DNA of 24,666 nt, from positions 37,935 to 62,600 of the forward strand of contig JAQGDQ010001103.1 of assembly GCA_030141605.1 (NCBI GenBank), in the 5' to 3' direction. Below the pieces are notes generated by a model. The model was not told the origin of the DNA. It worked only from the letters and a program-made list of their open reading frames with translations, and ran no database searches. The position numbers and the translations under genes are program-made. This document shows, piece by piece, positions 2,595 through 24,666 of the stretch (positions are counted from its first letter, which is position 1; each line of letters begins with the position of its first letter). The stretch is from Tubiluchus corallicola. Its lineage: Eukaryota > Animalia > Priapulida.

Positions 2595-3274
2595 GTCAGT
2601 ATTAGCGGTCAGTGTTAAAAATTCTGGTACAGTAATTCTCGTAATGGAGTAATAAGACTTTTCACAGTTATTCTTTACGCAGGTAAAGTATAGCGCAGCG
2701 ACGAGTTTTAACTACAAGCGTCACGTGACGTGTAAAGCAAAACCGCCTGCATCTGTTCAGTAACTTCAGTTGTTTTACGTGGTCTTTGCTTAATTTTGCA
2801 TTAGACTGTGCATAGAGTGATTTACTAGCAGGATCTTGCTTGGAAACAAGAAAAAATGAACTAGGTAAAGCTGTAGCTAGCTGTTAAAACTGTTACTATT
2901 GCAACAGCATGGAGTGTGAGGCATTGTCAAGTTTTCACTTCTTGTATAGAAAGTTTTACCTGGCATTTGACTTTACAGAGCTTCACAACATTGTTGTGTT
3001 ATTTCTATATGTGGCATGAGTAGCTTACCTGCATTCTATTGTGTTTATGGCGAAGTTTTATTCTTCCAAATAAGCAGTCTGTCAGCACATACCTTTTGAG
3101 TTCTTCATATTGTCTGGTACACTTGACCTTTGACCTTTTTACGATCATCATCAATGTTGTGAGAAGAACATAGAAGTTGTGAAAAGGTTTATTGCTCCTT
3201 TAGCACTAAGTACTGTTGAATTTTTCTACACTAGTTGCCATTAGCCATTTTGCCATTAGCATTTGCTTTTTCAG

Positions 3275-3391
3275 CCTGATTTCAGTACGGAGCCGTTGGA
3301 CAGCGACGAAGACGTGAACAACTGGTTGAAGTTCTTCGACATGTCCGCACCTCTTGTCTGTCTCACCGGTGAATGTGTGTCGCACGATCCG
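3275..3391 (+). CDS. C11orf54: Ester hydrolase C11orf54 homolog, internal coding exon
   Basis: Acceptor tttttcag and donor gtaagt; 117 bp. Encodes PDFSTEPLDSDEDVNNWLKFFDMSAPLVCL...SHDP. Confidence 0.93.
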
Positions 3392-4035: not shown

Positions 4036-4200
4036 GGCCTTGACCTGAGAGTGGAGCACACCCATTGTTTCAGTCGCCATGGAGACGGCGGTCATTACCA
4101 CTACGACACCACCCCGGACGTGGTCTCCTATCACGGCTACTTCAATCTTGCCGACATTCTGTACAGGATCGATCGACCGCCAAGTACGATCAAGTACTGA
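4036..4200 (+). CDS. C11orf54: Ester hydrolase C11orf54 homolog, terminal coding exon with the zinc-binding histidines
   Basis: Acceptor cttttcag. Encodes GLDLRVEHTHCFSRHGDGGHYHYDTTPD, the family signature HxH...GGHYH. TGA at 4198-4200. Confidence 0.95.
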   Translation, partial: GLDLRVEHTHCFSRHGDGGHYHYDTTPDVVSYHGYFNLADILYRIDRPPSTIKY

Positions 4201-4225: not shown

Positions 4226-4396
4226 CCCTTAAAAGCGTAGAAGTTGCTCAATGTCTGCTTTCTTTTCTACCTTTTTCTGCGGAAAACGTCGGAATTTACC
4301 AGTAATATTTACCATATCAAATTGTTATTGTGTAACAAATTGAAATTATATTAAAATTTCTGCTAAAATTGTTAATGTTTAACCTGTTTTTAAGGG
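4226..4396. mobile_element. piggyBac-like MITE (171 bp)
   Basis: TTAA duplication at 4222-4225 and 4397-4400 flanks 9-bp inverted termini cccttaaaa / ttttaaggg. Confidence 0.7.
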
Positions 4397-4506
4397 TTAA
4401 GGATCAATACATTTTATTGTTTTTCTCACTACTTCTTTCTCTTGCTTTTATGTATTCATCACAATCTAAAGGTGTTGGTGACATTCGACAAAAAAGTGGG
4501 TAACAG

Positions 4507-4747
4507 CAGGGATTTTACCGAAACCGAATTTTCGGTTCGGTTTGCCGACAGTTGCAGTTTCGGTCAAGTTTCGGTTTCGGTGAAATTTATCAAGTTTCAC
4601 AGCGGAAATTTCCGATAATTTTCTTCAACATTTTTCTAAAGTTTTACTAGTATTTATCCAACTTTTTTCTCCTAGATGTCAAATTCTGGTGAAAAATCTT
4701 GGCTAAAATAGTTCAAATAAAGTGAAAATTTCGTTTACATAACAGTT
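4507..4747. mobile_element. One end of a hAT-like non-autonomous element, truncated
   Basis: Starts CAGGGATTTTACCGAAACCGAA, followed by clustered ccgaa/ttcgg subterminal motifs (4518-4582). Matching end not found; right boundary approximate. Confidence 0.45.
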
Positions 4748-4763
4748 TGTGACGTGCTTTTCA

Positions 4764-5105
4764 CATCAGCGCACGCGCAGTAACCCCGCCCGTACGCGTA
4801 GTCGATCGGGACACCCACCCCCATCATATAGCGCTGGTGGCCGGTATCGCATCAGCGCACGCGCAGTAACCCCCCCGCCCGTACGCGTAGTCGATCGGTA
4901 CACCCACCCCCATCATATAGCACTGGTGGCCGGTATCGCATCAGCGCACGCGCAGTAACCCCGCTCGTACGCGTAGTCGATCGGGACACCCACCCCCATC
5001 ATATAGCGCTGGTGGCCGGTATCGCATCAGCGCATGCGCAGTAACCCCGCCCGTACTCGTAGTCGATCGGGACACCCACCCCCATCATATAGCACTGGTG
5101 CCCGG
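4764..5105. repeat. GC/CpG-rich ~86-bp tandem repeat, 4 copies
   Basis: Unit catcagcgcacgcgcagtaaccccgcccgtacgcgtagtcgatcgggacacccacccccatcatatagcgctggtggccggtatcg. Confidence 0.95.
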
Positions 5106-5119
5106 TGTCCTGATCGACA

Positions 5120-5701
5120 CCCAGCTTGCATAATTGTTTTGCAGATAACATATTAACCAAATGCTGACACTCTGCTAAATGCCAAACATCAGGCGCGGTC
5201 ACTTCTTGACCACCTATACCGCTGCTCTCCAGTAAGGAGATTAGGCAGTTGTCCGAGATTAGTTGAGGAAGTCATGATCGTTTGTGTTTTCTCTCCTCTA
5301 ACATAGTTTTCATCTATCACGTATGTGGTACCTGTATAAACCCCCATCTGTTGCATATCTAAATCACCTTGTGAAGAATACTTCTTCATACCGACATAAC
5401 CTGACTTCAGACATAACCTGGCTTCAGACGTAACCCGGCTTCACACATAACCTGGCTTCAGACGTAACCTGGCTTCAGACATAACCTGGCTTCATCCACT
5501 TAATAGGAACAGACATTACATTCTTCCAACATAGCATGAAGATCTTTGTGAGTTTTAAAACACACTTTAAACAGCTCCATGAATTTGCACCAATAATTCA
5601 GTCAGTAAGCAAACAAAGATCAATGAAATGCCCGATATTATACCTGAAAGAGCCAATCAATGCATTTTATCCATGTAATCATGATTAGCTATTCTTTCTC
5701 T
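5120..5701 (-). pseudogene. Phenuivirus/phlebovirus-like glycoprotein EVE, 3' part: Gn membrane anchor, cytoplasmic tail and probable Gc signal peptide
   Basis: Manual translation gives RERIANHDYMDKMH*LALSGIISGISLIFVCLL (TM), a frameshift, CLKCVLKLTKIFMLCWK..., ORF 5189-5389, then PRLMFGI*QSVSIWLICYLQNNYAS (signal-like). It joins the 6401+ segment in frame once the LINE is removed. Confidence 0.65.
5393..5494. repeat. 17-bp minisatellite, 6 copies, inside the Gn-like EVE
   Basis: gacataacctggcttca x6 with minor variants. Confidence 0.95.
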
Positions 5702-6398
5702 AGAATTAGAATTAGTTTATTCACCGTAATGATTTCACATAACATAAGTAGGCAACGATAACTATATAACTAACGAAATTAAAATTTAACTACAAAACAA
5801 AAAAATCATATACAGAGGGCAAATTTCTTTACCGAATCAACAAAAATATCGCGTTTTAATGTAGGGGCACAATAGTTCTTCACTCATACGTCTTAACACA
5901 TCTCCAACAATATTTCATTAACGACGTTAAATTTGGGGAGTGCATAAGGTTACAAATGCTAGAAAAGTTCAACTCAGAATGTTCAATTCGTAAATTTTCT
6001 GTCACCGGACATCTCAATAAGACGTGGGCTTCTGTTTGAACCTCTTCCCCACATGTACATAATCTGTCTTCTCTCGGTATTCTGGACCAACGTCCGGTTT
6101 CTATCATGAGATTAGGCGATGACGTCCTAAGTCTGGTAAATTCAACTCTTTGGTAGTCCGGGATTTCAGATTCCATATCATTATAGACTTTATGAGGTTC
6201 TAAACATGGGTTGAGTTCTAAAAATGTCAAAAGAACTTTTGCCGGAACATCGTCTTTGATATCAGTAGAAAGGATTTTTTGGAGGTACTTGTATCCTTTG
6301 GTATTGTTAGTTTTACATAAATTCCAAACAAACATAAATGGATCGTCCACCATACCAGTTCTTTGACTTATCAGTTTCAATAGCAAATTTCTTTGTGA
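5702..6398 (-). mobile_element. 5'-truncated non-LTR retrotransposon (CR1/L2-group-like): ORF2 C-terminus and 3' UTR
   Basis: ORF 5880-6428 carries RLRTSSPNLMIETGRW...RLCTC...EAHVLLRCP, the C-terminal motif typical of these LINE ORF2s. The minus-strand 3' end has AATAAA then a short (attcta)n tail. CT dinucleotide at both junctions (5700-5701, 6399-6400). Confidence 0.85.
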
Positions 6399-6400
6399 CT

Positions 6401-7215
6401 GCATAAGAAGCAGGTGACATAAGCACATGTATCAAAATCATTACAAGATGCATCAAAAATAATGGGTTCACTATTCTTAGCCTTATGCAACTTAGCTTTC
6501 ACATGGCCTGCAGTTAAGAACATAGATGGTTGGAACATTACAGGAACTATCTGAGATGTTATTGCTCCATGTATGTAACCTACTTTTCTTACACACCTCA
6601 TACATTCCACCCTCAAAAGTTGGAGCAAAAATCTTAACACCGTTGGATAAGCACGAAACTGAACATCTATCACATTTAGCATCTGTTTTATCATCTTCTG
6701 ATAATAATTTTCTTCCAACTAAAACATTAGTTGTACCAATGCAGTGAGGAACTATCATTTTCGTTCCTGTCTTCATAGTCATAACACTGGTGCTGCATTT
6801 TAATGCACAATAACAGTTAGATCCAGAAGTTCCAGGAGGATATAATATAAATTGCCAACACAGCCACCTGCTTTGCAAACACTATCAGAGCATAATCCAC
6901 AACATAAGAAATTAATCAGATCTTTTGTGTCTTGTTTCATGATTATTGTGTGTTCACTTGAGAACCATATAACATCTTGTCCAGTTATATATAACAGTTT
7001 TTAATATCTATTAATTTCATCATCACAATCTTTCAATTTCTTACCAGCAACTGAGCATAAACCTGGATCATTCCATAAGTTCTTTAAATCATCATAATTA
7101 TCCCGACATGTCATGTCTTGATAATATCTAGTAGATAAAAAGTGACTTCATTTTTTTACAAGCTACCAACCAAGGCAATTGGCAAAGATGTAGAAATCTT
7201 CACAATTGCTCTTCA
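6401..7215 (-). pseudogene. Phenuivirus/phlebovirus-like Gn (G1) ectodomain EVE with stops and frameshifts
   Basis: Ordered motifs YYQDMTC, GLCSVAGKKLKDCD, NFLC, CVGN, NCYCALKCSTSVMTMKTGTKMIVPHCIGTTNVLVGRKL, CDRCSVSCLSNGV, CNDFDTCAYVTCFLC. These parallel recalled RVFV Gn motifs: LQDLFC, GVCEVGVQALKKCD, SFVC, CTGD, NAYC...PLCVGYERVVVKREL, CxxCxxxCxxxG, Cx5Cx4Cx2C. Confidence 0.8.
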
Positions 7216-8714
7216 GACTTCCTTCCAGAACGCTCTTGCATTTCTATGTCTTCTTCTTTTCCCAGCTTCCTATTCTTCAGCTTCATCATTATTAGCCTGT
7301 ACAAAATCCATAGAATCAATGCATTAACTTCAATAAACGTAGCTACTGTCATCAGCCACAGCCAGTCCTTGGCAGAGGAGTAATCTTCATACCAATGAAG
7401 AGGTTCTATCTCGTGGTGGGAGATCAGGAGGGCGTGGGTCTTGTTTATTAAAGCGTTTATTTCATCCGTGTAGCTGGTTAGGTTGTGACTCTCTAGCTTT
7501 GGAATCCAGCTTTCGATTCGATGGAGAGTGTCACTACAACGGAGGAAATAGCCCGGTAAGTGATACTCTTTAACTTTTTTGCATGTCAAAACCAAGCTAG
7601 AGTTCTTAGGTATTGTTCTTTCTGATACTCCTGTGTAAGTGGACACAGTTCTTAAGGAGTAACTAGCTTGTTTTTGAACCAACCAACCGCCCATGAGTGT
7701 TACAACGCCCCAGCTTTCAGGTGACCTCTCATATTTTACAGATTTATCAAAAGGCTGTGTCTCCAGGTAATTTGGGCAAATAACGACATTAAGATCCTGA
7801 CATGTTCCAGGAGGGATGATCTTAATATCACTGACGCCTAAAATCATACTAAAAGGATTCCCATGGATTACCCAGGTCCCTCCCTTAACTACAGGAACAT
7901 TCCTTGTTTTGACATGTACCTTTCCTGGCGCTTGGACAATTTCTCTTACGTTGACCAACATCCATAATGTCTTTGGCTCGGATTTAATCACGATGGCTCG
8001 ACTAGCACCATAGGATAGAGGGATACTATGGCTAGAATTTGACATAAGGTGATGGAATTGAGTAGGACTGATTAAAAGGGGGTCTATTTTAGATGATGTA
8101 ATGGATTTTAATCCATGTCCATATCGAATCGAGTTAAGGTAATCGTGAAGGCTTGTCATATCGTTGGAATGCACCACCAATAGCTTTTGAACATTTGCAT
8201 CTATCCTACCCACAAACCTTTCTAGTTTTTCAAGGTTATGTCCCAGAATTCTTATTTCTTTGTTTGCTACTTCTATCTCATGTTTTATAACTCCTTGATT
8301 GTTTCTCAGTTCGCTCATCTTTCTATTAAGTGAATTGATCTCAGCTCTATTTGTAGCTCCTAACGCTAGGGCAGCTGTAGCCTCTGCCATTGCTGCGCCA
8401 GATACAATTAGACCCAAGAATCTTTTTTTCCGGTTGCCGTCAGTCGAGGAGTTGTCTAGGTTTGGATCTTTGAAGAGGTCATAATGGATATCCCAGGCGT
8501 AAGTCATATCAACCTTTACCACTTTATATGACTGTGTCACCTGATATCCGATGGGTTTGGGGTCGGTGATTATAATTCCGTAAGAGGCTAATGCATCCTG
8601 ATGTTTATAAATAATCTCTTGGGATAGCTGCGGAATAATGCTATTCACGCTTACTATGGTTCCGTGTGCAACGGTTAAGAGAGAAGAAATGGTTATGATA
8701 GTGTAGTAATCCAT
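7200..8714 (-). CDS. Open class I viral fusion glycoprotein (paramyxo/pneumovirus F-like; also resembles errantivirus/baculovirus F-type env), ~504 aa
   Basis: ATG at 8714 and signal peptide MDYYTIITISSLLTVAHG. Furin site RKKR followed by hydrophobic fusion peptide FLGLIVSGAAMAEATAALALG. Long heptad repeat, IDPLLISPTQF motif, CQDLNVVIC, HR2-like segment with N-glycan sequons, Trp-rich pre-TM, TM and basic tail. Intronless. Confidence 0.88.
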   Translation of the reverse strand: MDYYTIITISSLLTVAHGTIVSVNSIIPQLSQEIIYKHQDALASYGIIITDPKPIGYQVTQSYKVVKVDMTYAWDIHYDLFKDPNLDNSSTDGNRKKRFLGLIVSGAAMAEATAALALGATNRAEINSLNRKMSELRNNQGVIKHEIEVANKEIRILGHNLEKLERFVGRIDANVQKLLVVHSNDMTSLHDYLNSIRYGHGLKSITSSKIDPLLISPTQFHHLMSNSSHSIPLSYGASRAIVIKSEPKTLWMLVNVREIVQAPGKVHVKTRNVPVVKGGTWVIHGNPFSMILGVSDIKIIPPGTCQDLNVVICPNYLETQPFDKSVKYERSPESWGVVTLMGGWLVQKQASYSLRTVSTYTGVSERTIPKNSSLVLTCKKVKEYHLPGYFLRCSDTLHRIESWIPKLESHNLTSYTDEINALINKTHALLISHHEIEPLHWYEDYSSAKDWLWLMTVATFIEVNALILWILYRLIMMKLKNRKLGKEEDIEMQERSGRKSEEQL

Positions 8715-9003
8715 TTTGACTTCCACATCGCTTTGTCATCGCTTTACCACATGTGCAATTGCCATACGTGTAGATCTGATTTGATACATCACATTTCTCT
8801 ACATACAATCAGGGTTCTGTTAGATCTATGGCAACTAATGATCCATAGCAACTCTTAGGTTCACAGTGGTAAGCGATGGGATCTTGGGGCTTAACCGAAC
8901 AATGCTTTAACAAGGCTCTTCTTAGATTCTCAGTCTCATTATACATGTGTCTGATTGAGAGACATGCAACAGCATGAATCAAGATTATCAACACTTGAAA
9001 CAT
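8641..9003 (-). pseudogene. Small secreted Cys-rich viral-like protein (~120 codons) with one in-frame TGA, overlapping the start of the F-like gene
   Basis: Signal peptide MFQVLIILIHAVAC and NET sequon. After TGA (8809-8811) the frame continues LYVEKCDVSNQIYTYGNCTCGKAMTKRCG... to TAG at 8641-8643. Confidence 0.55.
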
Positions 9004-9005
9004 CT

Positions 9006-9167
9006 TCACTGTAATAGTATCTCAGTGTTTGCAGGCATCTTTGTGTGCGTTCTTCTTGTTTGTGTTCTATCGCAAAATATGCCACATAACGCACATTTTA
9101 ATTCTCTACGAACTAGCCAAATGTCAGTGTGCAGTTTCATTTGTGTTGTTGTGGCAATACTTTTGTG
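9006..9167 (-). other. Probable 3' remnant of an upstream viral ORF
   Basis: Open frame ...MKLHTDIWLVRRELKCALCGIFCDRT...EILLQ* whose TGA lies 2 nt before the ATG at 9003. Confidence 0.35.
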
Positions 9168-9589
9168 CTAATGGAGATTAATTAGTTAATGAATTCCCGA
9201 CTACGAGAGCTTCGGTCGAAGCTGTAACGATGAATCCCAGGTCGACCTTGATCCACGAAATACGCGCTGTGAAGTAGATCTTTATCTCCCTAGTTTTCTA
9301 GCACGGCTCTGCAGTAAGCCTTTTCAGTGTGATGATGTTCTGTGCCTGGCTGAAAATATATATTTATATAATGAACGGTAGTTAAATGTAGACTAATAAC
9401 AAGATTCGCTAGAAATACTAATGTTTAGCACGCCTCTGCAATAAACCTATATTCTTATCTCATTACACGTGTGACTAATGATGACTTATCTCGTTTGTTT
9501 GCTCGGATAACAGTAATTCCATTTGGTAGCTGCAGGCGTGACCAGTTTAAGAATACAATGTTAAGCAGTTGTTAACAGTTTCAGATGAT

Positions 9590-10840
9590 TTAAGATGTTA
9601 AAACTATGTGCTTTTCTTGCTCCCATGTTACTTTCGCCATTGTTATAACAGCCCAATTTTCCATTTGTTCCGTTGCCGCCAATGTCCATGGTAGTTCAAC
9701 AGGGTATAGGAATCTCATGTGATTGGCTGTGGCCCAATTTGAAATAACACGTCACCTTTCAACTTCCTCCAAATATGGGGCTTGCCCATCCCAATGTTGA
9801 GTAATATCTCTCGGCGCGTTATATTCTTGTAAGTACCACTGCCAACGACAGTCCCTCGGCCCAGGTCTAACAGGTGTTCCAGTAAAGCCCTCTGCCCTTT
9901 TAGTGTCCATCGTGTATATCTTGATACCTCTAGCCGGTTTAACTGGCTGTGTTCCTCTATACAGAGAATAAGGTCTTCCAAGGACACTGCCTGGTTCAAC
10001 TGTTACGGGTTTCTCTAGAGCATCCTCCATCTCTTTAGCAGAATACGGACTGTTCGGATCTCTAAAGAGAACCAAAGCATTCAGTCCGATATTCAAAGCT
10101 CTTGTATCTATTATAGTGTGATCATCGCCCGAAGTAAAGTACGATATAGGATTTAGCCTAATACCTATACTCCACTTCCAGCGGTAATCAACTACCGTGC
10201 CCAGAACACATCGCCATATACCCTGGAAGCTTTCCACTCCGATTGCGTACAATTCACATCCTTTTCGAACCACTGACTCACCGCTATCGGCTGTTAGTAG
10301 GTTTTCCTGCATTTCATCTAAAATGAAATGCTTCTCCACCTACTCTTCCAACCACTTCTACCACCGTCTCCCCAGGCTTCCTATCACGGACTACATTATC
10401 CAAAACCTGTTTGATTGACTGTGACTTGAAGTGGTTGGCCATTTCCAGCAAAAATTGGCGTGCAATCAGAGGGGCTGATAGAACAACTTGGTCCATATCC
10501 ATTCCTTTCTGTATCATGGCGTGGGTTTGTTCCATCTGCTCCGAAAAGCCACTCTTTGGGTTGGATGTCTCGGCCCCCACTACTCCAAAGTCTATGGCTA
10601 AACCAGCCACCCCGATTATCATAGCAACTATTCCAACTCTCCGATACCCCATCATAAAGGTGATGTATCCAAGAGCGACAATAGCCACATACGATATCCA
10701 TTCTGACACATTGAGTAACCTAGACAATCTGCTGCCAATAGCTGTAAGCCCATCCATCGCTGCATGGCCTATATTGGAAAAGAATCCACCGGTGTGGCGC
10801 TGCACAACGCCCAAACCTTTGTCCGTCCATTTGCCAGCCT
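9590..10840 (-). pseudogene. Flavivirus-like polyprotein EVE: E stem-anchor, signalase site and NS1-like region (frameshift near 10320-10340, premature stop at 9752)
   Basis: GGFFSNIGHAA amphipathic stem, two TM helices with a short basic loop (EWISYVAIVALGYITFMMGYRRVGIVAMIIGVAGL), and VVGA/E cleavage at 10572/10571. Compare recalled YFV GGFFTSVGKG...SWITKV...LGVGA/D. Downstream KGC..C..G and LYRGTQPV weakly resemble NS1 GC..KCG.G and YQRGTHPF. Confidence 0.6.
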
Positions 10841-13800
10841 TCTGGGAACATTTCTGTCGATTTTTTTTGCCTAATGCATGGTCTCCTTGGTACATCAGAC
10901 AGATGCACGTACAAACCTTATTCCACACCACACCAACGAAATAAAAAGATTTGGTTATTTTTGAGTCTTCTGGGTCTTCTGAATTGAAAATTGCCATTAT
11001 AGCCTGGCATAAAACAATCACAAAATGGCTCTTTAAGTTGTCAGAACAAAACCTGTCATTTTCAATAAACTCTGGGAACATTCCTGTTGCTTTTTTGCAT
11101 AATGCATGGTCTCCTTCATACATCAGACAGATGCAAGTACAAACCTTATTCCACATCTGGAGATTTGTAATAGTCTCCACGGTACGTAAGATTGATGCAA
11201 ATGCAAACTTTATTCCATTTCCGGGGATTTGTAATAGTCTCCATGGTGCGTAAGATTGATGCAACTGCAAACGTTCTTCCACATCCGGAGCTTTGTAATA
11301 GCCTCCACGGTACATAAGATTGATGATGCAAGTGCAAACCTTATTCCACATCTGGAGATTTGTAATTGTCTCCATGGTACGTAAGATTAATGCAAATGCA
11401 AACCTTATTCCACATCTGGAGATTTGTATTAGTCTCCATGGTACATAAGCTTGATGAAAATGCAAACCTTACTCTACATCCAGAGATTTGCAATCCCTAG
11501 AGGTTTACCTGGTATTTCTAAAACAAGAGACATGTCTAGTGAAATATCCGGAGATTTGTAATAGTCTCCACGGTACGTAAGATTGATGCAAATTCAAGCC
11601 TTATTCCACATCCGGAGATTGTAATAGTCTCTGTTGTACATCAGACGGATGCATGTACAAACCTTATTCCACACCACACCAACGAAATTAAAAGATTTGG
11701 TTATTTTTGAGTCTTCCGAGTCTTCTGAGTTGAAAATTGCATTTATAGCCAAGCATAAAACAATCACAAAATGGCTCTTGAAGTTGTCAGAACAAAACCT
11801 GTCATTTTCAATAAACTCTGGGAACATTCCTGTTGCTTTTTTGCATAATGCATGGTCTCCTTCATACATCAGACAGATGCAAGTACAAACCTTATTCCAC
11901 ATCTGGAGATTTGTAATAGTCTCCATGGTACGTAAGATTGATGCAAATGCAAACTTTATTCCATTTCCGGGGATTTGTAATAGTCTCCATGGTGCGTAAG
12001 ATTGATGCAAATGCAAACCTTACTCTACATCCAGAGATTTGCAATCCCTAGAGGTTTACCTGGTATTTCTAAAACAGGAGACATGTCTAGTGAAATATCC
12101 GGAGATTTGTAATAGTCTCCACGGTACGTAAGATTTGTGCACGTACAAACCTTATTCCACACCACACCAACAAAATAAAAAGATTTGATTATTTTTGAGT
12201 CTTCCGAATCTTCTGAGTTTAAAATTGCATTTATAGCCTGGCATAAAACAATCACAAAATGGCTCTTGAAGTTGTCAGAACAAAACCTGTCATTTTCAAT
12301 AAACTCTGGGAACATTCCTGTTGCGTTTTTGCATAATGCATGGTCTCCTTCATACATCAGACAGATGCAAGTGCAAACCTTATTCCACATCTGGAGATTT
12401 GTAATAGTCTCCATGGTACGTAAGATTGATGCAAATGCAAACGTTCTTCCACATCCGGAGCTTTGTAATAGCCTCCACGGTACATAAGATTGATGATGCA
12501 AGTGCAAACCTTATTCCACATCTGGAGATTTGTAATTGTCTCCATGGTACGTAAGATTAATGCAAATGCAAACCTTATTCCACATCTGGAGATTTGTATT
12601 AGTCTCCATGGTACATAAGATTGATGAAAATGCAAACCTTACTCTACATCCAGAGATTTGCAATCCCTAGAGGTTTACCTGGTATTTCTAAAACAAGAGA
12701 CATGTCTAGTGAAATATCCGGAGATTTGTAATAGTCTCCACGGTACGTAAGATTGATGCAAATTCAAGCCTTATTCCACATCCGGAGATTGTAATAGTCT
12801 CTGTTGTACATCAGACGGATGCATGTACAAACCTTATTCCACACCACACCAACGAAATTAAAAGATTTGGTTATTTTTGAGTCTTCCGAGTCTTCTGAGT
12901 TGAAAATTGCATTTATAGCCAGGCATAAAACAATCACAAAATGGCTCTTTAAGTTGTCAGAACAAAACCTGTCATTTTCAATAAACTCTGGGAACATTCC
13001 TGTTGCTTTTTTGCATAATGCATGGTCTCCTTCATACATCAGACAGATGCAAGTACAAACCTTATTCCACATCTGGAGATTTGTAATAGTCTCCACGGTA
13101 CGTAAGATTGATGCAAATGCAAACTTTATTCCATTTCCGGGGATTTGTAATAGTCTCCATGGTGCGTAAGATTGATGCAAATGCAAACCTTACTCTACAT
13201 CCAGAGATTTGCAATCCCTAGAGGTTTACCTGGTATTTCTAAAACAGGAGACATGTCTAGTGAAATATCCGGAGATTTGTAATAGTCTCCACGGTACGTA
13301 AGATTTGTGCACGTACAAACCTTATTCCACACCACACCAACAAAATAAAAAGATTTGATTATTTTCGAGTCTTCCGAATCTTCTGAGTTTAAAATTGCAT
13401 TTATAGCCTGGCATAAAACAATCACAAAATGGCTCTTGAAGTTGTCAGAACAAAACCTGTCATTTTCAATAAACTCTGGGAACATTCCTGTTGCGTTTTT
13501 GCATAATGCATGGTCTCCTTCATACATCAGACAGATGCAAGTGCAAACCTTATTCCACATCTGGAGATTTGTAATAGTCTCCATGGTACGTAAGATTGAT
13601 GCAAATGCAAACGTTCTTCCACATCCGGAGCTTTGTAATAGCCTCCACGGTACATAAGATTGATGATGCAAGTGCAAACCTTATTCCACATCTGGAGATT
13701 TGTAATTGTCTCCATGGTACGCAAGATTGATGCAAATGCAAACCTTATTCCACATCTAGAGATTTGTATTAGTCTCCCTGGTACGTAAGATTAATGCAAA

Positions 13801-16800
13801 TGCAAACTTTATTCCACATCTGGAGATTTGTATTAGTCTCCATGGTACATAAGATTGATGCAAATGCAAACCTTACTCTACATTCAGAGATTTGCAATCC
13901 CTAGAGGTTTACCTGGTATTTCTAAAACAAGAGACATGTCTAGTGAAATATCCGGAGATTTGTAATAGTCTCCACGGTACGTAAGATTGATGCAAATTCA
14001 AGCCTTATTCCACATCCGGAGATTGTAATAGTCTCTGTTGTACATCAGACGGATGCATGTACAAACCTTATTCCACACCACACCAACGAAATTAAAAGAT
14101 TTGGTTATTTTTGAGTCTTCCGAGTCTTCTGAGTTGAAAATTGCATTTATAGCCAAGCATAAAACAATCACAAAATGGCTCTTGAAGTTGTCAGAACAAA
14201 ACCTGTCATTTTCAATAAACTCTGGGAACATTTCTGTCGATTTTTTTTGCCTAATGCATGGTCTCCTTGGTACATCAGACAGATGCACGTACAAACCTTA
14301 TTCCACACCACACCAACGAAATAAAAAGATTTGGTTATTTTTGAGTCTTCCGAGTTTTCTGAGTTGAAAATTGCCATTATAGCCAGGCATAAAACAATCA
14401 CAAAATGGCTCTTTAAGTTGTCAGAACAAAACCTGTCATTTTCAATAAACTCTGGGAACATTCCTGTTGCGTTTTTGCATAATGCATTTTCTCCTTGGTA
14501 CATCAGACAGATGCACGTACAAACCTTATTCCACACCACCAACGAAATTAAAAGATTTGGTTATTTTTGAGTCTTCCGAGTCTTCTGAGTTGAAAATTGC
14601 ATTTATAGCCAGGCATAAAACAATCACAAAATGGCTCTTGAAGTTGTCAGAACAAAACCTGTCATTTTCAATAAACTCTGGGAACATTCCTGTCGCTTTT
14701 TGGCCTAATGCATGGTCTCCTTGGTACATCAGATGGATGTAAGTGCAAACCTTATTCCAATCCGGAGATTTGTAATAGTCTCCATGGTACATCAGACAGA
14801 TGCACGTACAAACCTTATTCCACAGCACACCAACGAAATAAAAAGATTTGGTTATTTTTGAGTCTTCCGAGTCTTCTGAGTTGAAAATTGCCATTATAGC
14901 CAGGCATAAAACAATCACAACATGGCTTTTTAAGTTGTCAGAACAAAACCTGTCATTTTCAATAAACTCTGGGAACATTCCTGTCGCTTTTGTGCCTAAT
15001 GCATGGTCCTTGGTACATCAGATGGATGCAAATGCAAACCTTATTCCACATTCGGAGATTTTTAATAGTCTCCATGGTACGTAAGATTGATGCAAATGCA
15101 AACTTTATTCCACTTCCGGAGATTTGTAATAGCCTCCATGGTACGTTAGATTGATGCAAATTCAAACCTTATTCCACATCCGGAGCTTTGTAGTAGCCTC
15201 CACGGCACATAAGATTGATGATGCAAGTGCAAACCTTGTTCCACATCCGGAGATTTGTAATCCCTAGAGGTTCACCTGGTACTTCTAAAACAGGAGACAT
15301 CTAATAAAATCTCCAGAGATTTGTGATAGTCTCCGTGGTACATCAGATTTATGCACGTACAAACCTTATTCCACACCACACCAACAAAATAAAAAGATTT
15401 GATTATTTTTGAGTCTTCCGAATCTTCTGAGTTTAAAATTGCATTTATAGCCTGGCATAAAACAATCACAAAATGGCTCCTTAAGTTGTCAGAACAAAAC
15501 CTGTCATTTTCAATAAACTCTGGGAACATTCCTGTTGCTTTTTTGCGTAATGCATGGTCTCCTTCATACATCAGACAGATGCAAGTGCAAACCTTATTCC
15601 ACATCTGGAGATTTGTAATAGTCTCCATGGTACGTAAGATTGATGCAAATGCAAACGTTCTTCCACATCCGGAGCTTTGTAATAGCCTCCACGGTACATA
15701 AGATTGATGATGCAAGTGCAAACCTTATTCCACATCTGGAGATTTGTATTAGTCTCCATGGTACATAACATTGATGCAAATGCAAACCTTACTCTACATC
15801 CAGAGATTTGCAATCCCTAGAGGTTTACCTGGTATTTCTAAAACAAGAGACATGTCTAGTGAAATATCCGGAGATTTGTAATAGTCTCCACGGTACGTAA
15901 GATTGATGCAAATGCAAGCCTTATTCCACATCCGGAGATTGTAATAGTCTCTGTTGTACATCAGACGGATGCACGTACAAACCTTATTCCGCACCACACC
16001 AACGAAATAAAAAGATTTGGTTATTTTTGAGTCTTCCGAGTCTTCTGAGTTGAAAATTGCCATTATAGCCAGGCATAAAACAATCACAAAATGGCTCTTT
16101 AAGTTGTCAGAACAAAACCTGTCATTTTCAATAAACTCTGGGAACATTCCTGTTGCTTTTTTGCATAATGCATGGTCTCCTTCATACATCAGACAGATGC
16201 AAGTACAAACCTTATTCCACATCTGGAGATTTGTAATAGTCTCCATGGTACGTAAGATTGATGCAAATGCAAACTTTATTCCATTTCCGGGGATTTGTAA
16301 TAGTCTCCATGGTGCGTAAGATTGATGCAAATGCAAACCTTACTCTACATCCAGAGATTTGCAATCCCTAGAGGTTTACCTGGTATTTCTAAAACAGGAG
16401 ACATGTCTAGTGAAATATCCGGAGATTTGTAATAGTCTCCACGGTACGTAAGATTGATGCAAATGCAAGCCTTATTCCACATCCGGAGATTGTAATAGTC
16501 TCTGTTGTACATCAGACGGATGCACGTACAAACCTTATTCCACACCACACCAACGAAATTAAAAGATTTGGTTATTTTTGAGTCTTCCGAGTCTTCTGAG
16601 TTGAAAATTGCATTTATAACCAGGCATAAAACAATCACAAAATGGCTCTTGAAGTTGTCAGAACAAAACCTGTCATTTTCAATAAACTCTGGGAACATTC
16701 CTGTCGCTTTTTTGCCTAATGCATGGTCTCCTTGGTACATCAGATGGATGTAAGTGCAAACCTTATTCCAATCCGGAGATTTGTAATAGTCTCCATGGTA

Positions 16801-19800
16801 CATCAGACAGATGCACGTACAAACCTTATTCCACACCACACCAACGAAATAAAAAGATTTGGTTATTTTTGAGTCTTCCGAGTCTTCTGAGTTGAAAATT
16901 GCCATTATAGCCAGGCATAAAACAATCACAAAATGGCTCTTTAAGTTGTCAGAACAAAACCTGTCATTTTCAATAAACTCTGGGAACATTCCTGTTGCGT
17001 TTTTGCATAATGCATTTTCTCCTTGGTACATCAGACAGATGCACGTACAAACCTTATTCCACACCACCAACGAAATTAAAAGATTTGGTTATTTTTGAGT
17101 CTTCCGAGTCTTCTGAGTTGAAAATTGCATTTATAGCCAGGCATAAAACAATCACAAAATGGCTCTTGAAGTTGTCAGAACAAAACCTGTCATTTTCAAT
17201 AAACTCTGGGAACATTCCTGTCGCTTTTTGGCCTAATGCATGGTCTCCTTGGTACATCAGATGGATGTAAGTGCAAACCTTATTCCAATCCGGAGATTTG
17301 TAATAGTCTCCATGGTACATCAGACAGATGCACGTACAAACCTTATTCCACAGCACACCAACGAAATAAAAAGATTTGGTTATTTTTGAGTCTTCCGAGT
17401 CTTCTGAGTTGAAAATTGCCATTATAGCCAGGCATAAAACAATCACAACATGGCTTTTTAAGTTGTCAGAACAAAACCTGTCATTTTCAATAAACTCTGG
17501 GAACATTCCTGTCGCTTTTGTGCCTAATGCATGGTCCTTGGTACATCAGATGGATGCAAATGCAAACCTTATTCCACATTCGGAGATTTTTAATAGTCTC
17601 CATGGTACGTAAGATTGATGCAAATGCAAACTTTATTCCACTTCCGGAGATTTGTAATAGCCTCCATGGTACGTTAGATTGATGCAAATTCAAACCTTAT
17701 TCCACATCCGGAGCTTTGTAGTAGCCTCCACGGCACATAAGATTGATGATGCAAGTGCAAACCTTGTTCCACATCCGGAGATTTGTAATCCCTAGAGGTT
17801 CACCTGGTACTTCTAAAACAGGAGACATCTAATAAAATCTCCAGAGATTTGTGATAGTCTCCGTGGTACATCAGATTTATGCACGTACAAACCTTATTCC
17901 ACACCACACCAACAAAATAAAAAGATTTGATTATTTTTGAGTCTTCCGAATCTTCTGAGTTTAAAATTGCATTTATAGCCTGGCATAAAACAATCACAAA
18001 ATGGCTCCTTAAGTTGTCAGAACAAAACCTGTCATTTTCAATAAACTCTGGGAACATTCCTGTTGCTTTTTTGCGTAATGCATGGTCTCCTTCATACATC
18101 AGACAGATGCAAGTGCAAACCTTATTCCACATCTGGAGATTTGTAATAGTCTCCATGGTACGTAAGATTGATGCAAATGCAAACATTCTTCCACATCCGG
18201 AGCTTTGTAATAGCCTCCACGGTACATAAGATTGATGATGCAAGTGCAAACCTTATTCCACATCTGGAGATTTGTATTAGTCTCCATGGTACATAACATT
18301 GATGCAAATGCAAACCTTACTCTACATCCAGAGATTTGCAATCCCTAGAGGTTTACCTGGTATTTCTAAAACAAGAGACATGTCTAGTGAAATATCCGGA
18401 GATTTGTAATAGTCTCCACGGTACGTAAGATTGATGCAAATGCAAGCCTTATTCCACATCCGGAGATTGTAATAGTCTCTGTTGTACATCAGACGGATGC
18501 ACGTACAAACCTTATTCCGCACCACACCAACGAAATAAAAAGATTTGGTTATTTTTGAGTCTTCCGAGTCTTCTGAGTTGAAAATTGCCATTATAGCCAG
18601 GCATAAAACAATCACAAAATGGCTCTTTAAGTTGTCAGAACAAAACCTGTCATTTTCAATAAACTCTGGGAACATTCCTGTTGCTTTTTTGCATAATGCA
18701 TGGTCTCCTTCATACATCAGACAGATGCAAGTACAAACCTTATTCCACATCTGGAGATTTGTAATAGTCTCCATGGTACGTAAGATTGATGCAAATGCAA
18801 ACTTTATTCCATTTCCGGGGATTTGTAATAGTCTCCATGGTGCGTAAGATTGATGCAAATGCAAACCTTACTCTACATCCAGAGATTTGCAATCCCTAGA
18901 GGTTTACCTGGTATTTCTAAAACAGGAGACATGTCTAGTGAAATATCCGGAGATTTGTAATAGTCTCCACGGTACGCAAGATTGATGCAAATGCAAGCCT
19001 TATTCCACATCCGGAGATTGTAATAGTGTCTGTTGTACATCAGACGGATGCACGTACAAACCGTATTCCACACCACACCAACGAAATTAAAAGATTTGGT
19101 TATTTTTGAGTCTTCCGAGTCTTCTGAGTTGAAAATTGCATTTATAACCAGGCATTAAACAATCACAAAATGGCTCTTGAAGTTGTCAGAACAAAACCTG
19201 TCATTTTCAATAAACTCTGGGAACATTCCTGTCGCTTTTTGGCCTAATGCATGGTCTCCTTGGTACATCAGATGGATGTAAGTGCAAACCTTATTCCAAT
19301 CCGGAGATTTGTAATAGTCTCCATGGTACATCAGACAGATGCACGTACAAACCTTATTCCACAGCACACCAACGAAATAAAAAGATTTGGTTATTTTTGA
19401 GTCTTCCGAGTCTTCTGAGTTGAAAATTGCCATTATAGCCAGGCATAAAACAATCACAACATGGCTTTTTAAGTTGTCAGAACAAAACCTGTCATTTTCA
19501 ATAAACTCTGGGAACATTCCTGTCGCTTTTGTGCCTAATGCATGGTCTCCTTGGTACATCAGATGGATGCAAATGCAAACCTTATTCCACATTCGGAGAT
19601 TTTTAATAGTCTCCATGGTACGTAAGATTGATGCAAATGCAAACTTTATTCCACTTCCGGAGATTTGTAATAGCCTCCATGGTACGTTAGATTGATGCAA
19701 ATTCAAACCTTATTCCACATCCGGAGCTTTGTAGTAGCCTCCACGGCACATAAGATTGATGATGCAAGTGCAAACCTTATTCCACATCCGGAGATTTGTA

Positions 19801-21946
19801 ATCCCTAGAGGTTCACCTGGTACTTCTAAAACAGGAGACGTCTAATAAAATCTCCAGAGATTTGTGATAGTCTCCGTGGTACATCAGATTTATGCATGTA
19901 CAAACCTTATTCCACACCACACCAACGAAATTAAAAGATTTGGTTATTTTTGAGTCTTCCGAGTCTTCTGAGTTGAAAATTGCATTTATAACCAGGCATT
20001 AAACAATCACAAAATGGCTCTTGAAGTTGTCAGAACAAAACCTGTCATTTTCAATAAACTCTGGGAACATTCCTGTCGCTTTTTTGCGTAATGCATGGTC
20101 TCCTTCATACATCAGACAGATGCAAGTGCAAACCTTATTCCACATCTGGAGATTTGTAATAGTCTCCATGGTACGTAAGATTAATGCAAATGCAAACGTT
20201 CTTCCACATCCGGAGCTTTGTAATAGCCTCCACGGTACATAAGATTGATGATGCAAGTGCAAACCTTATTCCACATCTGGAGATTTGTATTAGTCTCCAT
20301 GGTACATAACATTGATGCAAATGCAAACCTTACTCTACATCCAGAGATTTGCAATCCCTAGAGGTTTACCTGGTATTTCTAAAACAAGAGACATGTCTAG
20401 TGAAATATCCGGAGATTTGTAATAGTCTCCACGGTACGTAAGATTGATGCAAATTCAAGCCTTATTCCACATCCGGAGATTGTAATAGTCTCTGTTGTAC
20501 ATCAGACGGATGCATGTACAAACCTTATTCCACACCACACCAACGAAATTAAAAGATTTGGTTATTTTTGAGTCTTCCGAGTCTTCTGAGTTGAAAATTG
20601 CATTTATAGCCAGGCATAAAACAATCACAAAATGGCTCTTGAAGTTGTCAGAACAAAACCTGTCATTTTCAATAAACTCTGGGAACATTCCTGTCACTTT
20701 TGTGCCTAATGCATGGTCTCCTTGGTACATCAGATGGATGCAAATGCAAACCTTATTCCACATTCGGAGATTTTTAATAGTCTCCACGGTACGTAAGATT
20801 GATGCAAATGCAAACTTTATTCCACATCCGGAGCTTTGTAATAGCCTCCATGGTACGTTAGATTGATGCAAATTCAAACCTTATTCCACATCCGGCGCTT
20901 TGTAGTAGTCTCCACGGCACATAAGATTGATGATGCAAGTGCAAACCTTATTCCACATCTGGAGATTTGTAATTGTCTCCATGGTACGCAAGATTGATGC
21001 AAATGCAAACCTTGCTCTACATCCAGAGATTTGTAATCCCTAGAGGTTTAACTGGTATTTCTAAAACAGGAGACATGTCTAGTGAAATATCCGGAGATTT
21101 GTAATAGTCTCCACGGTACGTAAGATTGATGCAAATGCAAACCTTATTCCACATCCGGAGATTGTAATAGTCTCCATGGTACATCAGACAGATGCACGTA
21201 CAAACCTTATTCCACACCACACCAACGAAATAAAAAGATTTGGTTATTTTTGAGTCTTCTGAGTCTTCTGAGTTGAAAATTGCATTTATACCCTTTCATA
21301 AAACAATCACAAAATGACCCTTGAAGTTTTCAGAACAAAACCTGTCATTTTCAATAAACTCTGGGAACATTCCTGTCGCTTTTTTGCCTAATGCATGGTC
21401 TCCTTGGTACATCAGATGGATGCAAATGCAAACCTTATTCCATATCCGGAGAGGTGTAAAAGTCTCCATGGTACATCAGACAGATGCACGTACAAACCTT
21501 ATTCCACACCACACCAACAAAATAAAAAGATTTGGTTATTTTTGAGTCTTCCGAGTCTTCTGAGTTGAAAATTGCATTTATAGCCTGGCATAAAACAATC
21601 ACAAAATGGCTCTTTAAGTTTTCAGAACAAAACCTGTCATTTTCAATAAACTCTGGGCACATTCCTGTCGCTTTTTTGCCTAATGCATGGTCTCCTTGGT
21701 ACATCAGATGGATGCAAATGCAAACCTTATTCCATATCCGGAGAGGTGTAATAGTCTCCTTGGTACATCAGACAGATACACGTACAAACCTTATTCCACA
21801 TCCGGAGATTTGTAATAGTCACCACGGTACGTAAGATTGATGCAAATACAAACCTTACTCTACACCCAGAGAATTGTAATCCCTAGAGGCTTACCTGGCA
21901 TTTCTAAACAGGAGATATGTCTAGTGAAATATCTGGAGATTTGTAA
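10841..21946. repeat. ~11.1-kb complex satellite with 64-, ~68- and ~229-bp monomers and higher-order repeats
   Basis: Core 64-mer tccggagatttgtaatagtctccatggtacgtaagattgatgcaaatgcaaaccttattccaca (starts 11156, 11220, 11284). 68-bp variant at 11479-11546. Long unit at 14041, 14271, 14499. Near-identical ORFs recur at offsets of 1170 and 2528 bp. Confidence 0.97.
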
Positions 21947-22673: not shown

Positions 22674-23157
22674 TGAAGGTGACAGTAGCTGTTTATTGGC
22701 GCGAGGTGATGACAAAGCTATAAGATCTGGATTAATGACGACTAACACGTTTATTTCATAATATCATATTATATAAGAGTAAACATATAGCTATGCCAAG
22801 CCCCTGACCTGTCCAGCCTCCTTTCCTGAGATCCTAACCTGATCTGATCTCACTAGCTGACTTCTCCGAATTCCTGGCTTCCTGCTTGGCGTCAGGCTGA
22901 TGGCACACGCACGGGGAAAATGGGCATTGCACTGGCGCCAGACTGACTGTCCAGAATGGCTACTTCCATATTCGGGATTCTTAGTGGAGAGGCCATCACG
23001 TGACTGCTGCACCTTAATCTCGTGTTCAGCAGTCTGGCTTCCTAGGCGTCCTTTCTAGATATGTAACATATTTAATTATCAAACCACTAATCATATAACA
23101 TCTTTAATTACCGAACCATTAATCATTAGATATTTAACATTTTACCGATTCTCTTCA
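22674..23157 (-). mobile_element. 3' LTR (484 bp) of an LTR retrotransposon, probably Ty3/Gypsy
   Basis: Inverted termini TGAAG...CTTCA. Polypurine tract GAAAGGGAGGAG immediately precedes the minus-strand TG (23158-23169). Minus-strand AATAAA signals near 22692 and 22750. Confidence 0.75.
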
Positions 23158-23270
23158 CTCCTCCCTTTCTAGAAAGAAATTAATTCCCTCGGGGCTGGCA
23201 GGTTAAACTTGAACGTTAAAGTACATGGCATTAAATCTTTATCATATACATCAGCTAAAATATATGGCAT

Positions 23271-23371
23271 AAAATACATGGCATTAAATATCCATCCTAC
23301 ATTAAAATACATGACATTAAATATCCATCCTACATTAAAATACATGGCATTAAATATCCATCCTACATTAA
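23271..23371. repeat. 33-bp tandem repeat, 3 copies
   Basis: aaaatacatg(g/a)cattaaatatccatcctacatt x3, with degenerate copies upstream. Confidence 0.9.
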
Positions 23372-24158
23372 ATATTTGAAATTACTATAATCTGCTTTAC
23401 TATATCTAGGCAACCTGAATGCATTCTTGTGAGTATGGAAGCATGAGACGCGCTGCGCCCTTATATTAAGGTTACAACATTTTACAACACTGATAAGCAT
23501 GATTACGTGCGAATGTCTAGATTAAGCCTCTATATGCTGAGGTAATTATTATCTTTGCTGATTACATTATTCAAGGCTTCAGCAACATACATCATGGTTC
23601 AGTGTATATAATATCATTATGATAAACATTTTTCCTTACAATACTATAGTATCATTATGACCAAATCATCATGAGAAACATTTTTCCTTAAAATACTATA
23701 ATATCATTAATATCATTACCAAGTTAATATCCTTAATATCATTACCAATTTAATATCATTATGATGAACAGTTTTCTTTAAAATATCATTAATATCATAA
23801 TACAGTATATTATCCTAACGTTCATCATCATAGATCATAGTTTTAATCGTCATCATTATCTTTATTAGATATAGCTATACTAATAATAATTTTTTTTTGT
23901 TTTTCTTTAAGCACCCTTAGTTTAAGACACACAAGTTCACATCAATTACTTTGTATAACACATATCATGAGTTCAAAGTTCGAGGTACAAAGTTCATCAA
24001 GGTTTAAAGTATGTGTATATGCAAAGTTCATCAATGTTCAAAGTACGAGTATATTTTTAAACATATATTCAAGACACACACGAGTTCACATCTCATGAGT
24101 TCAAAATACATATCGTGAGTTCAAAATACACATCATAGGAGTTTAGAGTTCGTCAAAG

Positions 24159-24340
24159 TTCAAAATACAATCATTCAAAATACAAATCATGAATTCAAAA
24201 TACAAATGACAAATCAGAATTCAAAATACAATCATTCAAAATACAAATCATGAATTCAAAATACAGATGACAAATCGGAATTCAAAATACAATCATTCAA
24301 AATACAAATCCGTGAATTCAAAATACAAATTACAAATCAT
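24159..24340. repeat. 61-bp tandem repeat, 3 copies, built from ttcaaaataca subunits
   Basis: caaaatacaatcattc recurs at 24161, 24222 and 24283. Confidence 0.9.
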
Positions 24341-24348
24341 TCTCTACA

Positions 24349-24666
24349 TTATTCATTCTCTTCCCTTAGTTGAAAGTAAGCGTTTTGATCAGGGGTCAAT
24401 TGTGACGACTGGAGACGTGTCGCAAATGCAATTATAGCTTGATATAATGCCTGGAAATTGCTTTGAGCCGCCATTTGTGAGGTAAATCTGGAGGGCCATG
24501 TCATGGCAATCTCGTGGTTAAATCTTTGTATCCACATGGAGTGAAAAATAGCCACTTGATCAGGTCTCTCTAAGTTGAGACAACTTGAGTCATACAGTAA
24601 AATATTCGTTAATATTTCTAATTCGTTTTGAGATGGTCGGACTAACATAATAGCTTGTGCAGTTCT
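24349..24666 (-). CDS. C-terminal part of an unidentified ORF, likely the last ORF of the LTR element; 5'-partial
   Basis: The frame is open from the window edge (RTAQAIMLVRPS...) to the stop at 24349. No recognisable domain. Confidence 0.45.
   Translation of the reverse strand, partial: RTAQAIMLVRPSQNELEILTNILLYDSSCLNLERPDQVAIFHSMWIQRFNHEIAMTWPSRFTSQMAAQSNFQALYQAIIAFATRLQSSQLTPDQNAYFQLREENE

Follow-up and report, generated by a model that had tools for sequence, protein, structure and literature searches.

In Aedes, core clusters for PIWI-interacting RNAs (piRNAs) are described as beginning at the end of a gene, being transcribed by read-through and holding antisense viral fragments of several families (10.1101/2022.08.22.504762). 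In Aag2 cells, unidirectional clusters of endogenous viral elements (EVEs) and transposable elements have been reported, with capture skewed towards glycoprotein genes for some virus families (10.1101/127498). In Chaoborus americanus, the locus odin consists of head-to-tail copies of a bunyavirus nucleoprotein gene that is reported to be transcribed only antisense and whose cognate virus is known; it was first met as a contig with matching ends, and is linear by exonuclease (PMC6620529). Outside the arthropods, a probable EVE of a mollusc is reported to give negative-strand small RNAs with a 5' U, and putative EVEs of other non-arthropods to give piRNA-like reads (PMC6085071). F-type env genes, finally, are described as common in Ty3/gypsy errantiviruses across animals, with a diversity that spans the viral F families (PMC13524379). 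Here we analyze 24,666 nucleotides from the priapulid Tubiluchus corallicola (assembly GCA_030141605.1, contig JAQGDQ010001103.1, positions 37,935 to 62,600 of the forward strand), a stretch that we call the window, in which a Gn-like gene, an intact class I fusion-like (F) open reading frame (ORF) and a polyprotein-like fragment, here called E-like, lie antisense behind a host gene. Our analysis leaves about an even chance that this locus is a read-through, single-strand piRNA trap of the Aedes kind. None of the titles listed by a literature search was seen to describe a locus like this one, which is not proof of its absence from print.

Envelope-type pieces lie antisense behind a host gene

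The plus-strand host gene is represented by its last four visible exons (1561-1716, 2445-2594, 3275-3391 and 4036-4200), which match Pfam PF08925 (DUF1907; E-value 2.2e-19). Their GT/AG borders, read off the sequence, make this a spliced gene whose reading frame ends at 4200. An earlier, sequence-only reading of the stretch named it a C11orf54 homolog, and we take the gene to be of that type. Behind it follow, in this order, an 86-bp repeat, a 5.7-kb stretch, an 11-kb satellite and a putative element at the right end of the window. About 1.3 kb separate the host stop codon (4200) from the first piece to which we assign a viral type.

The Gn-like gene, the F cassette, the E-like piece and the 3' end of what resembles a long interspersed nuclear element (LINE) are all on the minus strand, show no sign of introns and run antisense to the spliced DUF1907 gene, as the sequence-only reading had proposed. 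Its observation that polymerase and nucleocapsid genes are missing also held, with no Pfam hit to either among the 13+4+3 pieces scanned. For four independent inserts, the chance of all being antisense is 1 in 16, and we regard the shared orientation as suggestive only.

An intact class I fusion-like ORF

The F ORF occupies 7200-8714 on the minus strand and encodes 504 amino acids, identified as class I fusion-like by translation, hydropathy, motifs and the ESM Atlas. It lies within a stop-free run of 511 codons, whereas none of 300 shuffles has a run of more than 196. The encoded protein has a signal peptide, an RKKR site, directly after it a hydrophobic stretch that resembles a fusion peptide, a predicted heptad helix, one C-terminal transmembrane segment, five N-glycan sites and four cysteines. 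Its cleavage and fusion-peptide region aligns to henipavirus F in the PDB (E-value 0.05-0.09). In the ESM Atlas, the ORF scored 0.97 to clusters of PF00523 (F0), with 222 of 256 features common and a recognition of 1803, which is below the guide value of 2300; it scored 0.92-0.96 to Baculo_F and gypsy env clusters.

In paramyxovirus F, a cysteine of the F2 subunit forms the F2-F1 disulfide. The four cysteines of the ORF (residues 305, 313, 378 and 393) are all C-terminal to the cleavage site, with none in F2, and the Pfam score to PF00523 is 15.3 bits, under the gathering cut-off of 29.8. On paper, the ORF would be a class I fusogen, and this part of the sequence-only reading stands; the label "paramyxo-type" is unproven, as neither the PF00523 score nor the cysteines appear to support membership of the Paramyxoviridae. 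Searches for relatives returned none at an E-value of 0.001 or below among 1,835,955,588 representative proteins, and none in further collections that included IMG/VR and the JGI metagenomes. Fold searches gave no match at the same threshold; the single-sequence AlphaFold models behind them, with predicted local distance difference test (pLDDT) values of 35 and, for the NS1-like part treated below, 28, were unusable.

The ORF may instead be a retrotransposon env, possibly a detached fragment of an errantivirus. No gag, pol or paired long terminal repeats (LTRs) were found around it within the window by Pfam and repeat scans. A small cysteine-rich ORF on the same strand (8644-9003), with a signal-peptide-like start, one internal stop and no Pfam hit, overlaps the F start by 71 nt, an arrangement that would resemble a compact virus genome more than a pol-env junction.

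The F unit is amplified in two studies

The contig comparison took in four of the six listed runs, and four runs from two studies, none of them recorded as RNA, carry the stretch. One of them, X1, may be the source sample of the window. Depths given here are summed contig depths, not copy numbers, and joints and loose ends are those among the rows listed. Missing cover in runs X5 and X6, and over 6553-6916 in run X3, was not used as evidence.

Depth and a contig joint delimit an amplified unit of about 1.4 kb, from 7221 to about 8626, that covers F codons ~30-498. Its depth is 1210 in X1 and 40-62 in X3, or 7.3x and 5.0x that of single-copy contigs, and the flanking contigs are at single depth. 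X1 contains a head-to-tail joint from 8626 to 7221 at depth 1220, while X3 contigs end at 7221 and 8622. As contigs end at 8622, the joint must differ from the window at 8623, and the unit is therefore 1406 or 1407 bp long. The simplest reading is that the locus holds a head-to-tail array of several near-identical F units, of which the window shows one; the units may instead belong to a circle or to an array at another site.

The F unit differs from the window at 0 of 1163 letters in X1 and 1 of 1401 in X3, and the E-like region at 4 of 1621 and 5 of 1142, respectively. The occurrence of both pieces in two studies with few differences is consistent with inherited DNA. At the border between Gn and F, contig cover reaches only 30 letters into the F side, and no single listed contig spans 9259-9284; both joins are consistent with the contigs, not formally bridged by them. 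In the gap that separates the E-like fragment from the F cassette, 9101-9464 has an X1 bin depth of 1206, yet two long contigs there have depths of 153 and 187, breaking at 9259-9284. A short multi-copy piece probably lies in this gap.

An intact frame of 504 codons with a signal peptide, a cleavage site and a membrane anchor, and with so few differences in X1 and X3, is also what would be expected if the minus strand expressed a domesticated fusogen, or a protein that blocks a receptor, its dose being raised by the amplification. However, with its beginning near codon 30, the repeated unit contains neither start codon nor signal peptide. The near identity of the copies points to youth, which would account for an open frame without selection, and no homologue appeared in any collection searched. 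We consider domestication very improbable.

A broken Gn-like gene probably split by a LINE-like end

On the minus strand at 6404-7220, with an upstream border near 7170-7260, Pfam and a protein alignment identify a broken Gn ectodomain of phenuivirus type that carries frame changes and in-frame stops. The reference for the alignment, L077, is a natural phlebovirus M polyprotein, the only one of 13 loci from a Gc-motif scan with the motif in its longest frame; the other 12 were dropped. Positions 6495-6881 match PF07243 (Phlebovirus_G1) with an E-value of 4.4e-8 and 32.4 bits, above the cut-off of 25, and align to residues 430-519 of L077 (z 5.7). Positions 6818-7132 align to residues 300-368 (z 6.5), and in both cases 0 of 300 shuffles scored as high. 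These two of the six pieces of the region are significant and collinear, and the other four are not significant singly. There is also a weak PDB match to an envelopment polyprotein (E-value 0.07). The minus-strand Gn-like gene of the sequence-only reading is thereby borne out. Homologue searches, IMG/VR included, returned no relatives of it, and no match to a Gc following it was found in 5002-5271 or 5192-5440 by Pfam or L077 alignment.

A probable distal part of Gn, assigned by alignment to L077, lies at 5481-5701 on the minus strand, with a spacer, a transmembrane segment and a basic tail, interrupted by one stop and one frame change. Its positions 5481-5597 align on the Gn tail of L077 (residues 599-624). 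The combined score of 6404-6598, 5570-5701 and 5481-5597 was reached by 44 of 2000 shuffles, none of the three being significant singly and one being out of register. Between the two Gn parts sits a multi-copy, LINE-like 3' end (5703-6403, minus strand), recognized by an ORF at 5880-6431 and by its multi-copy depth, with a CCHC-type knuckle, an AATAAA at 5716 and a short tandem tail; contigs end at 5712 and 6373. We class it as LINE-like by the CCHC motif, a label to which Pfam and PDB searches gave no support. This end was likely inserted within the Gn-like gene, splitting it. A 12-bp repeat (5819/6383) was considered as a target-site duplication and rejected, as both copies lie inside the multi-copy cover.

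Judged by their sequences, at least two unrelated envelope families appear to be present at the locus, and either could derive from a retrotransposon env. For the Gn-like gene, the Gn/Gc-type env of nematode BEL/Pao elements is another possible source.

A polyprotein-like fragment with borderline similarity to the E stem of flaviviruses

The third piece, at 9593-10838 on the minus strand, reads as a polyprotein-like fragment: an amphipathic stem, two hydrophobic segments and a signalase-like site are followed by ~330 amino acids with one frame change and one stop. The sequence-only reading had taken it for flavivirus E and NS1. Our test set comprised 63 flavivirus loci found by an NS5 motif, of which 59 with a polyprotein of >3000 amino acids were used and 4 dropped. 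Against the profile of the 59, positions 10317-10850 were the best of 110 pieces and were placed on the E stem, but with an E-value of 0.08. An hhalign comparison to the E stem gave an E-value of 0.015, a level reached by 2 of 60 shuffles.

The part after the signalase-like site gave no profile match to NS1, and 57 of 60 shuffles scored as high. It holds 3 cysteines in ~330 amino acids, compared with 12-13 in 56 of the 59 natural NS1 proteins (the other 3 were not locatable), and NS1 is described as having 12 conserved cysteines (PMC4645344). Pfam and PDB searches of the fragment gave no hit, and the ESM Atlas was blank or unusable. A single-sequence model of the NS1-like part was too poor for a fold search (pLDDT 28). 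No homologue of the stem piece was found in IMG/VR, and none of 9755-10339 in collections of which one covered only 343-2000 amino acids, full polyproteins being outside its range. The E/NS1 assignment is thus unsupported by sequence in its NS1 half and borderline in the other, and of the three unrelated virus types once proposed, at least two unrelated envelope families are upheld and the third is unproven.

We regard 9593-10838 as a putative membrane-polyprotein fragment. As the test set contained no genome recognized as tamanavirus-like, it may come from a remote flavi-like virus. Scanning with a second motif, aimed at flavi-like genomes further removed, yielded 6 contigs of 9-66 kb, which are outside the comparison.

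Unequal decay favors separate captures

The pieces differ in their state of preservation. Gn has several frame changes and stops and probably the LINE-like insertion, the E-like piece is interrupted by a single frame change and a single stop, and F is intact. The observed/expected CpG ratio is 0.17 in Gn, versus 0.55-0.66 in F and the E-like piece, and the G fraction is 0.27-0.31 in the E-like piece versus 0.20-0.21. Because decay and composition differ between the pieces, separate captures are favored over one insertion, which supports the serial capture proposed in the sequence-only reading.

The opposing explanation is a single insertion from one virus or retroelement with more than one envelope gene, or else a mobile element collecting such genes, the latter offered by that reading in second place. 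The pieces do lie end to end, the small cysteine-rich ORF runs into the F start as in a compact genome and has an F-like composition, and a Gn-like frame may extend into the F tail, with a weak alignment up to 7258. Besides the contrast in decay and composition, however, there are no terminal repeats and no adjacent gag or pol hits, the pieces other than F are at single-copy depth in X1, and no related contig was found in IMG/VR (4 pieces tried) or in the JGI metagenomes (F). A common source of this kind is clearly improbable, and the collecting element finds no backing here.

Repeats and neighboring elements

Between the host gene and the Gn-like gene, Tandem Repeats Finder (TRF) detected a GC-rich 86-bp repeat in 4 copies (4764-5106), which belongs to a multi-copy family (X1 bin depth 2961 versus ~165 for single-copy DNA). 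It is followed by a single-copy, purine-rich piece without a family match (5120-5392, minus strand; X1 bin depth 164). The sequence-only reading began its viral mosaic here; Pfam gave no hit, and the piece matched neither phlebovirus M, Gn included, nor flavivirus profiles. As a candidate for flavivirus NS5, 5002-5271 was rejected, the best of 246 tiles reaching an E-value of only 0.76. A 17-bp tandem repeat in 6 copies (5393-5494; TRF) lies at the end of the probable Gn tail.

On the other side, the E-like fragment joins, in mid-unit, a satellite of 11 kb (10840-21900; TRF) whose 64-bp base unit is arranged in higher-order repeats, the periods being 226, 291, 488, 551 and 618 bp. Contigs from both studies (X1 and X3) bridge the junction, and the long ORFs within the satellite are repeat artefacts. 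At the right end (22700-24666), a 105-codon minus-strand frame continues beyond the window; the same stretch has AT-rich repeats and, around 23160-23176, a purine tract. The LTR element once placed here could not be substantiated, as there was no Pfam hit and no paired LTR within the window.

In and around the host gene, very high-copy short elements occupy 2700-3160 in an intron and 4500-4760 just past the gene end (X1 bin depths up to 719,000 and 14,600). The intron at 1816-2425 carries tandem repeats of 31 bp (17 copies) and 29 bp (3 copies), and the 29-bp unit duplicates the sequence directly 5' of the splice acceptor at 2444. Over 2434-2594, which takes in a host exon, runs X5 and X6 bear the same species label as X1, yet ~10-14% of their letters differ, hinting at a possible cryptic species or paralogue. 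An Rfam scan of the window gave 0 matches.

Discussion

Our model suggests that envelope-gene pieces were captured serially behind the host DUF1907 gene as reverse-transcribed fragments, by way of a retroelement reverse transcriptase. Gn would be the oldest capture and F the youngest. Transcription that continues past the end of the host gene would then yield antisense piRNAs from the trapped pieces, and the F array would supply more of the small RNA directed against F, as has been suggested for odin. The target might be an RNA virus with an envelope or a retrotransposon that carries env. A more specific version, which we rate as rather unlikely, is a trap that holds the fusion gene of an unsampled virus lineage, recently amplified head-to-tail, possibly via circular DNA copies, as a dose-raising antiviral memory, together with a very distant flavi-like envelope fragment.

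Several points weigh against a read-through trap. Candidate poly(A) signals (ATTAAA at 4350 and AATAAA at 4716) follow the host gene and precede the first viral piece. The third virus type failed the NS1 test, there are only ~6 kb of such pieces, and four or five inserts on one strand, whichever strand it is, are only modestly unlikely (0.06-0.125). In addition, the neighboring 11-kb satellite suggests a low-constraint region in which inserts would accumulate anyway.

The main rival explanation is that the locus is a neutral graveyard, in which pieces of viruses and transposons gathered in a low-constraint gap between gene and satellite, came to share a strand by chance or by loss of sense inserts, and give no output. 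The heavy decay of Gn, the small number of independent inserts with its weak strand odds, the presence of the 86-bp and 17-bp arrays and the satellite in the same stretch, and the tandem amplification seen throughout the window all fit it. Against it, the envelope-type pieces are grouped within 5 kb straight behind a gene end, an arrangement described as enriched in functional Aedes clusters (10.1101/2022.08.22.504762), and both studies carrying the locus show the amplification of the F unit. We judge neutral accumulation unlikely, though a serious contender.

If small RNAs confirm the read-through trap, the locus would be a compact and testable example of how read-through at the end of a gene can trap envelope genes of viruses, and its amplified F unit would allow one to ask whether piRNA dose and the number of copies of a captured gene go together. 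If none are made, it would be an ordinary pile of endogenous viral fragments. The F amplification, and the LINE-like end probably lying within Gn, are new beyond the sequence-only reading. In either case, the F ORF represents a class I fusion lineage without a relative in 1.84 billion representatives, which is of use in reconstructing the phylogeny of F-type fusogens.

Comparison with known systems

Among viral proteins, the Gn-like gene shares with phlebovirus Gn (PF07243 and L077) the cysteine pattern and the order of the ectodomain pieces. In contrast to phlebovirus Gn, it has low identity, is broken, has no Gc found downstream and ends in the 17-bp repeat. The F ORF has the signal peptide, furin site, fusion peptide, helical stalk and transmembrane anchor described for the F-type env of errantiviruses (PMC13524379), and gypsy env clusters are among its Atlas neighbors; unlike in those elements, no gag, pol or LTR pair was found by the ORF, and its upstream neighbor is a small ORF of secreted type.

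Like odin, our locus has a putatively captured viral-type gene that probably occurs as head-to-tail copies. The gene is a nucleoprotein gene in odin and a class I fusion gene here, and odin is linear, where a circle is a possible alternative here. The described read-through clusters of Aedes share with our locus the antisense viral-type fragments and the co-oriented piece of a retroelement, and probably also the position directly behind a host gene and the presence of more than one family of viral fragment, two envelope families being supported here. They differ from it in that our locus spans ~6 kb, has a LINE-like end where they have dense LTR pieces, lacks close database relatives and is known from DNA alone. 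The kind of locus is one already known from mosquitoes; what is unusual in the priapulid is its orphan, intact class I fusion gene and the hidden amplification of that gene.

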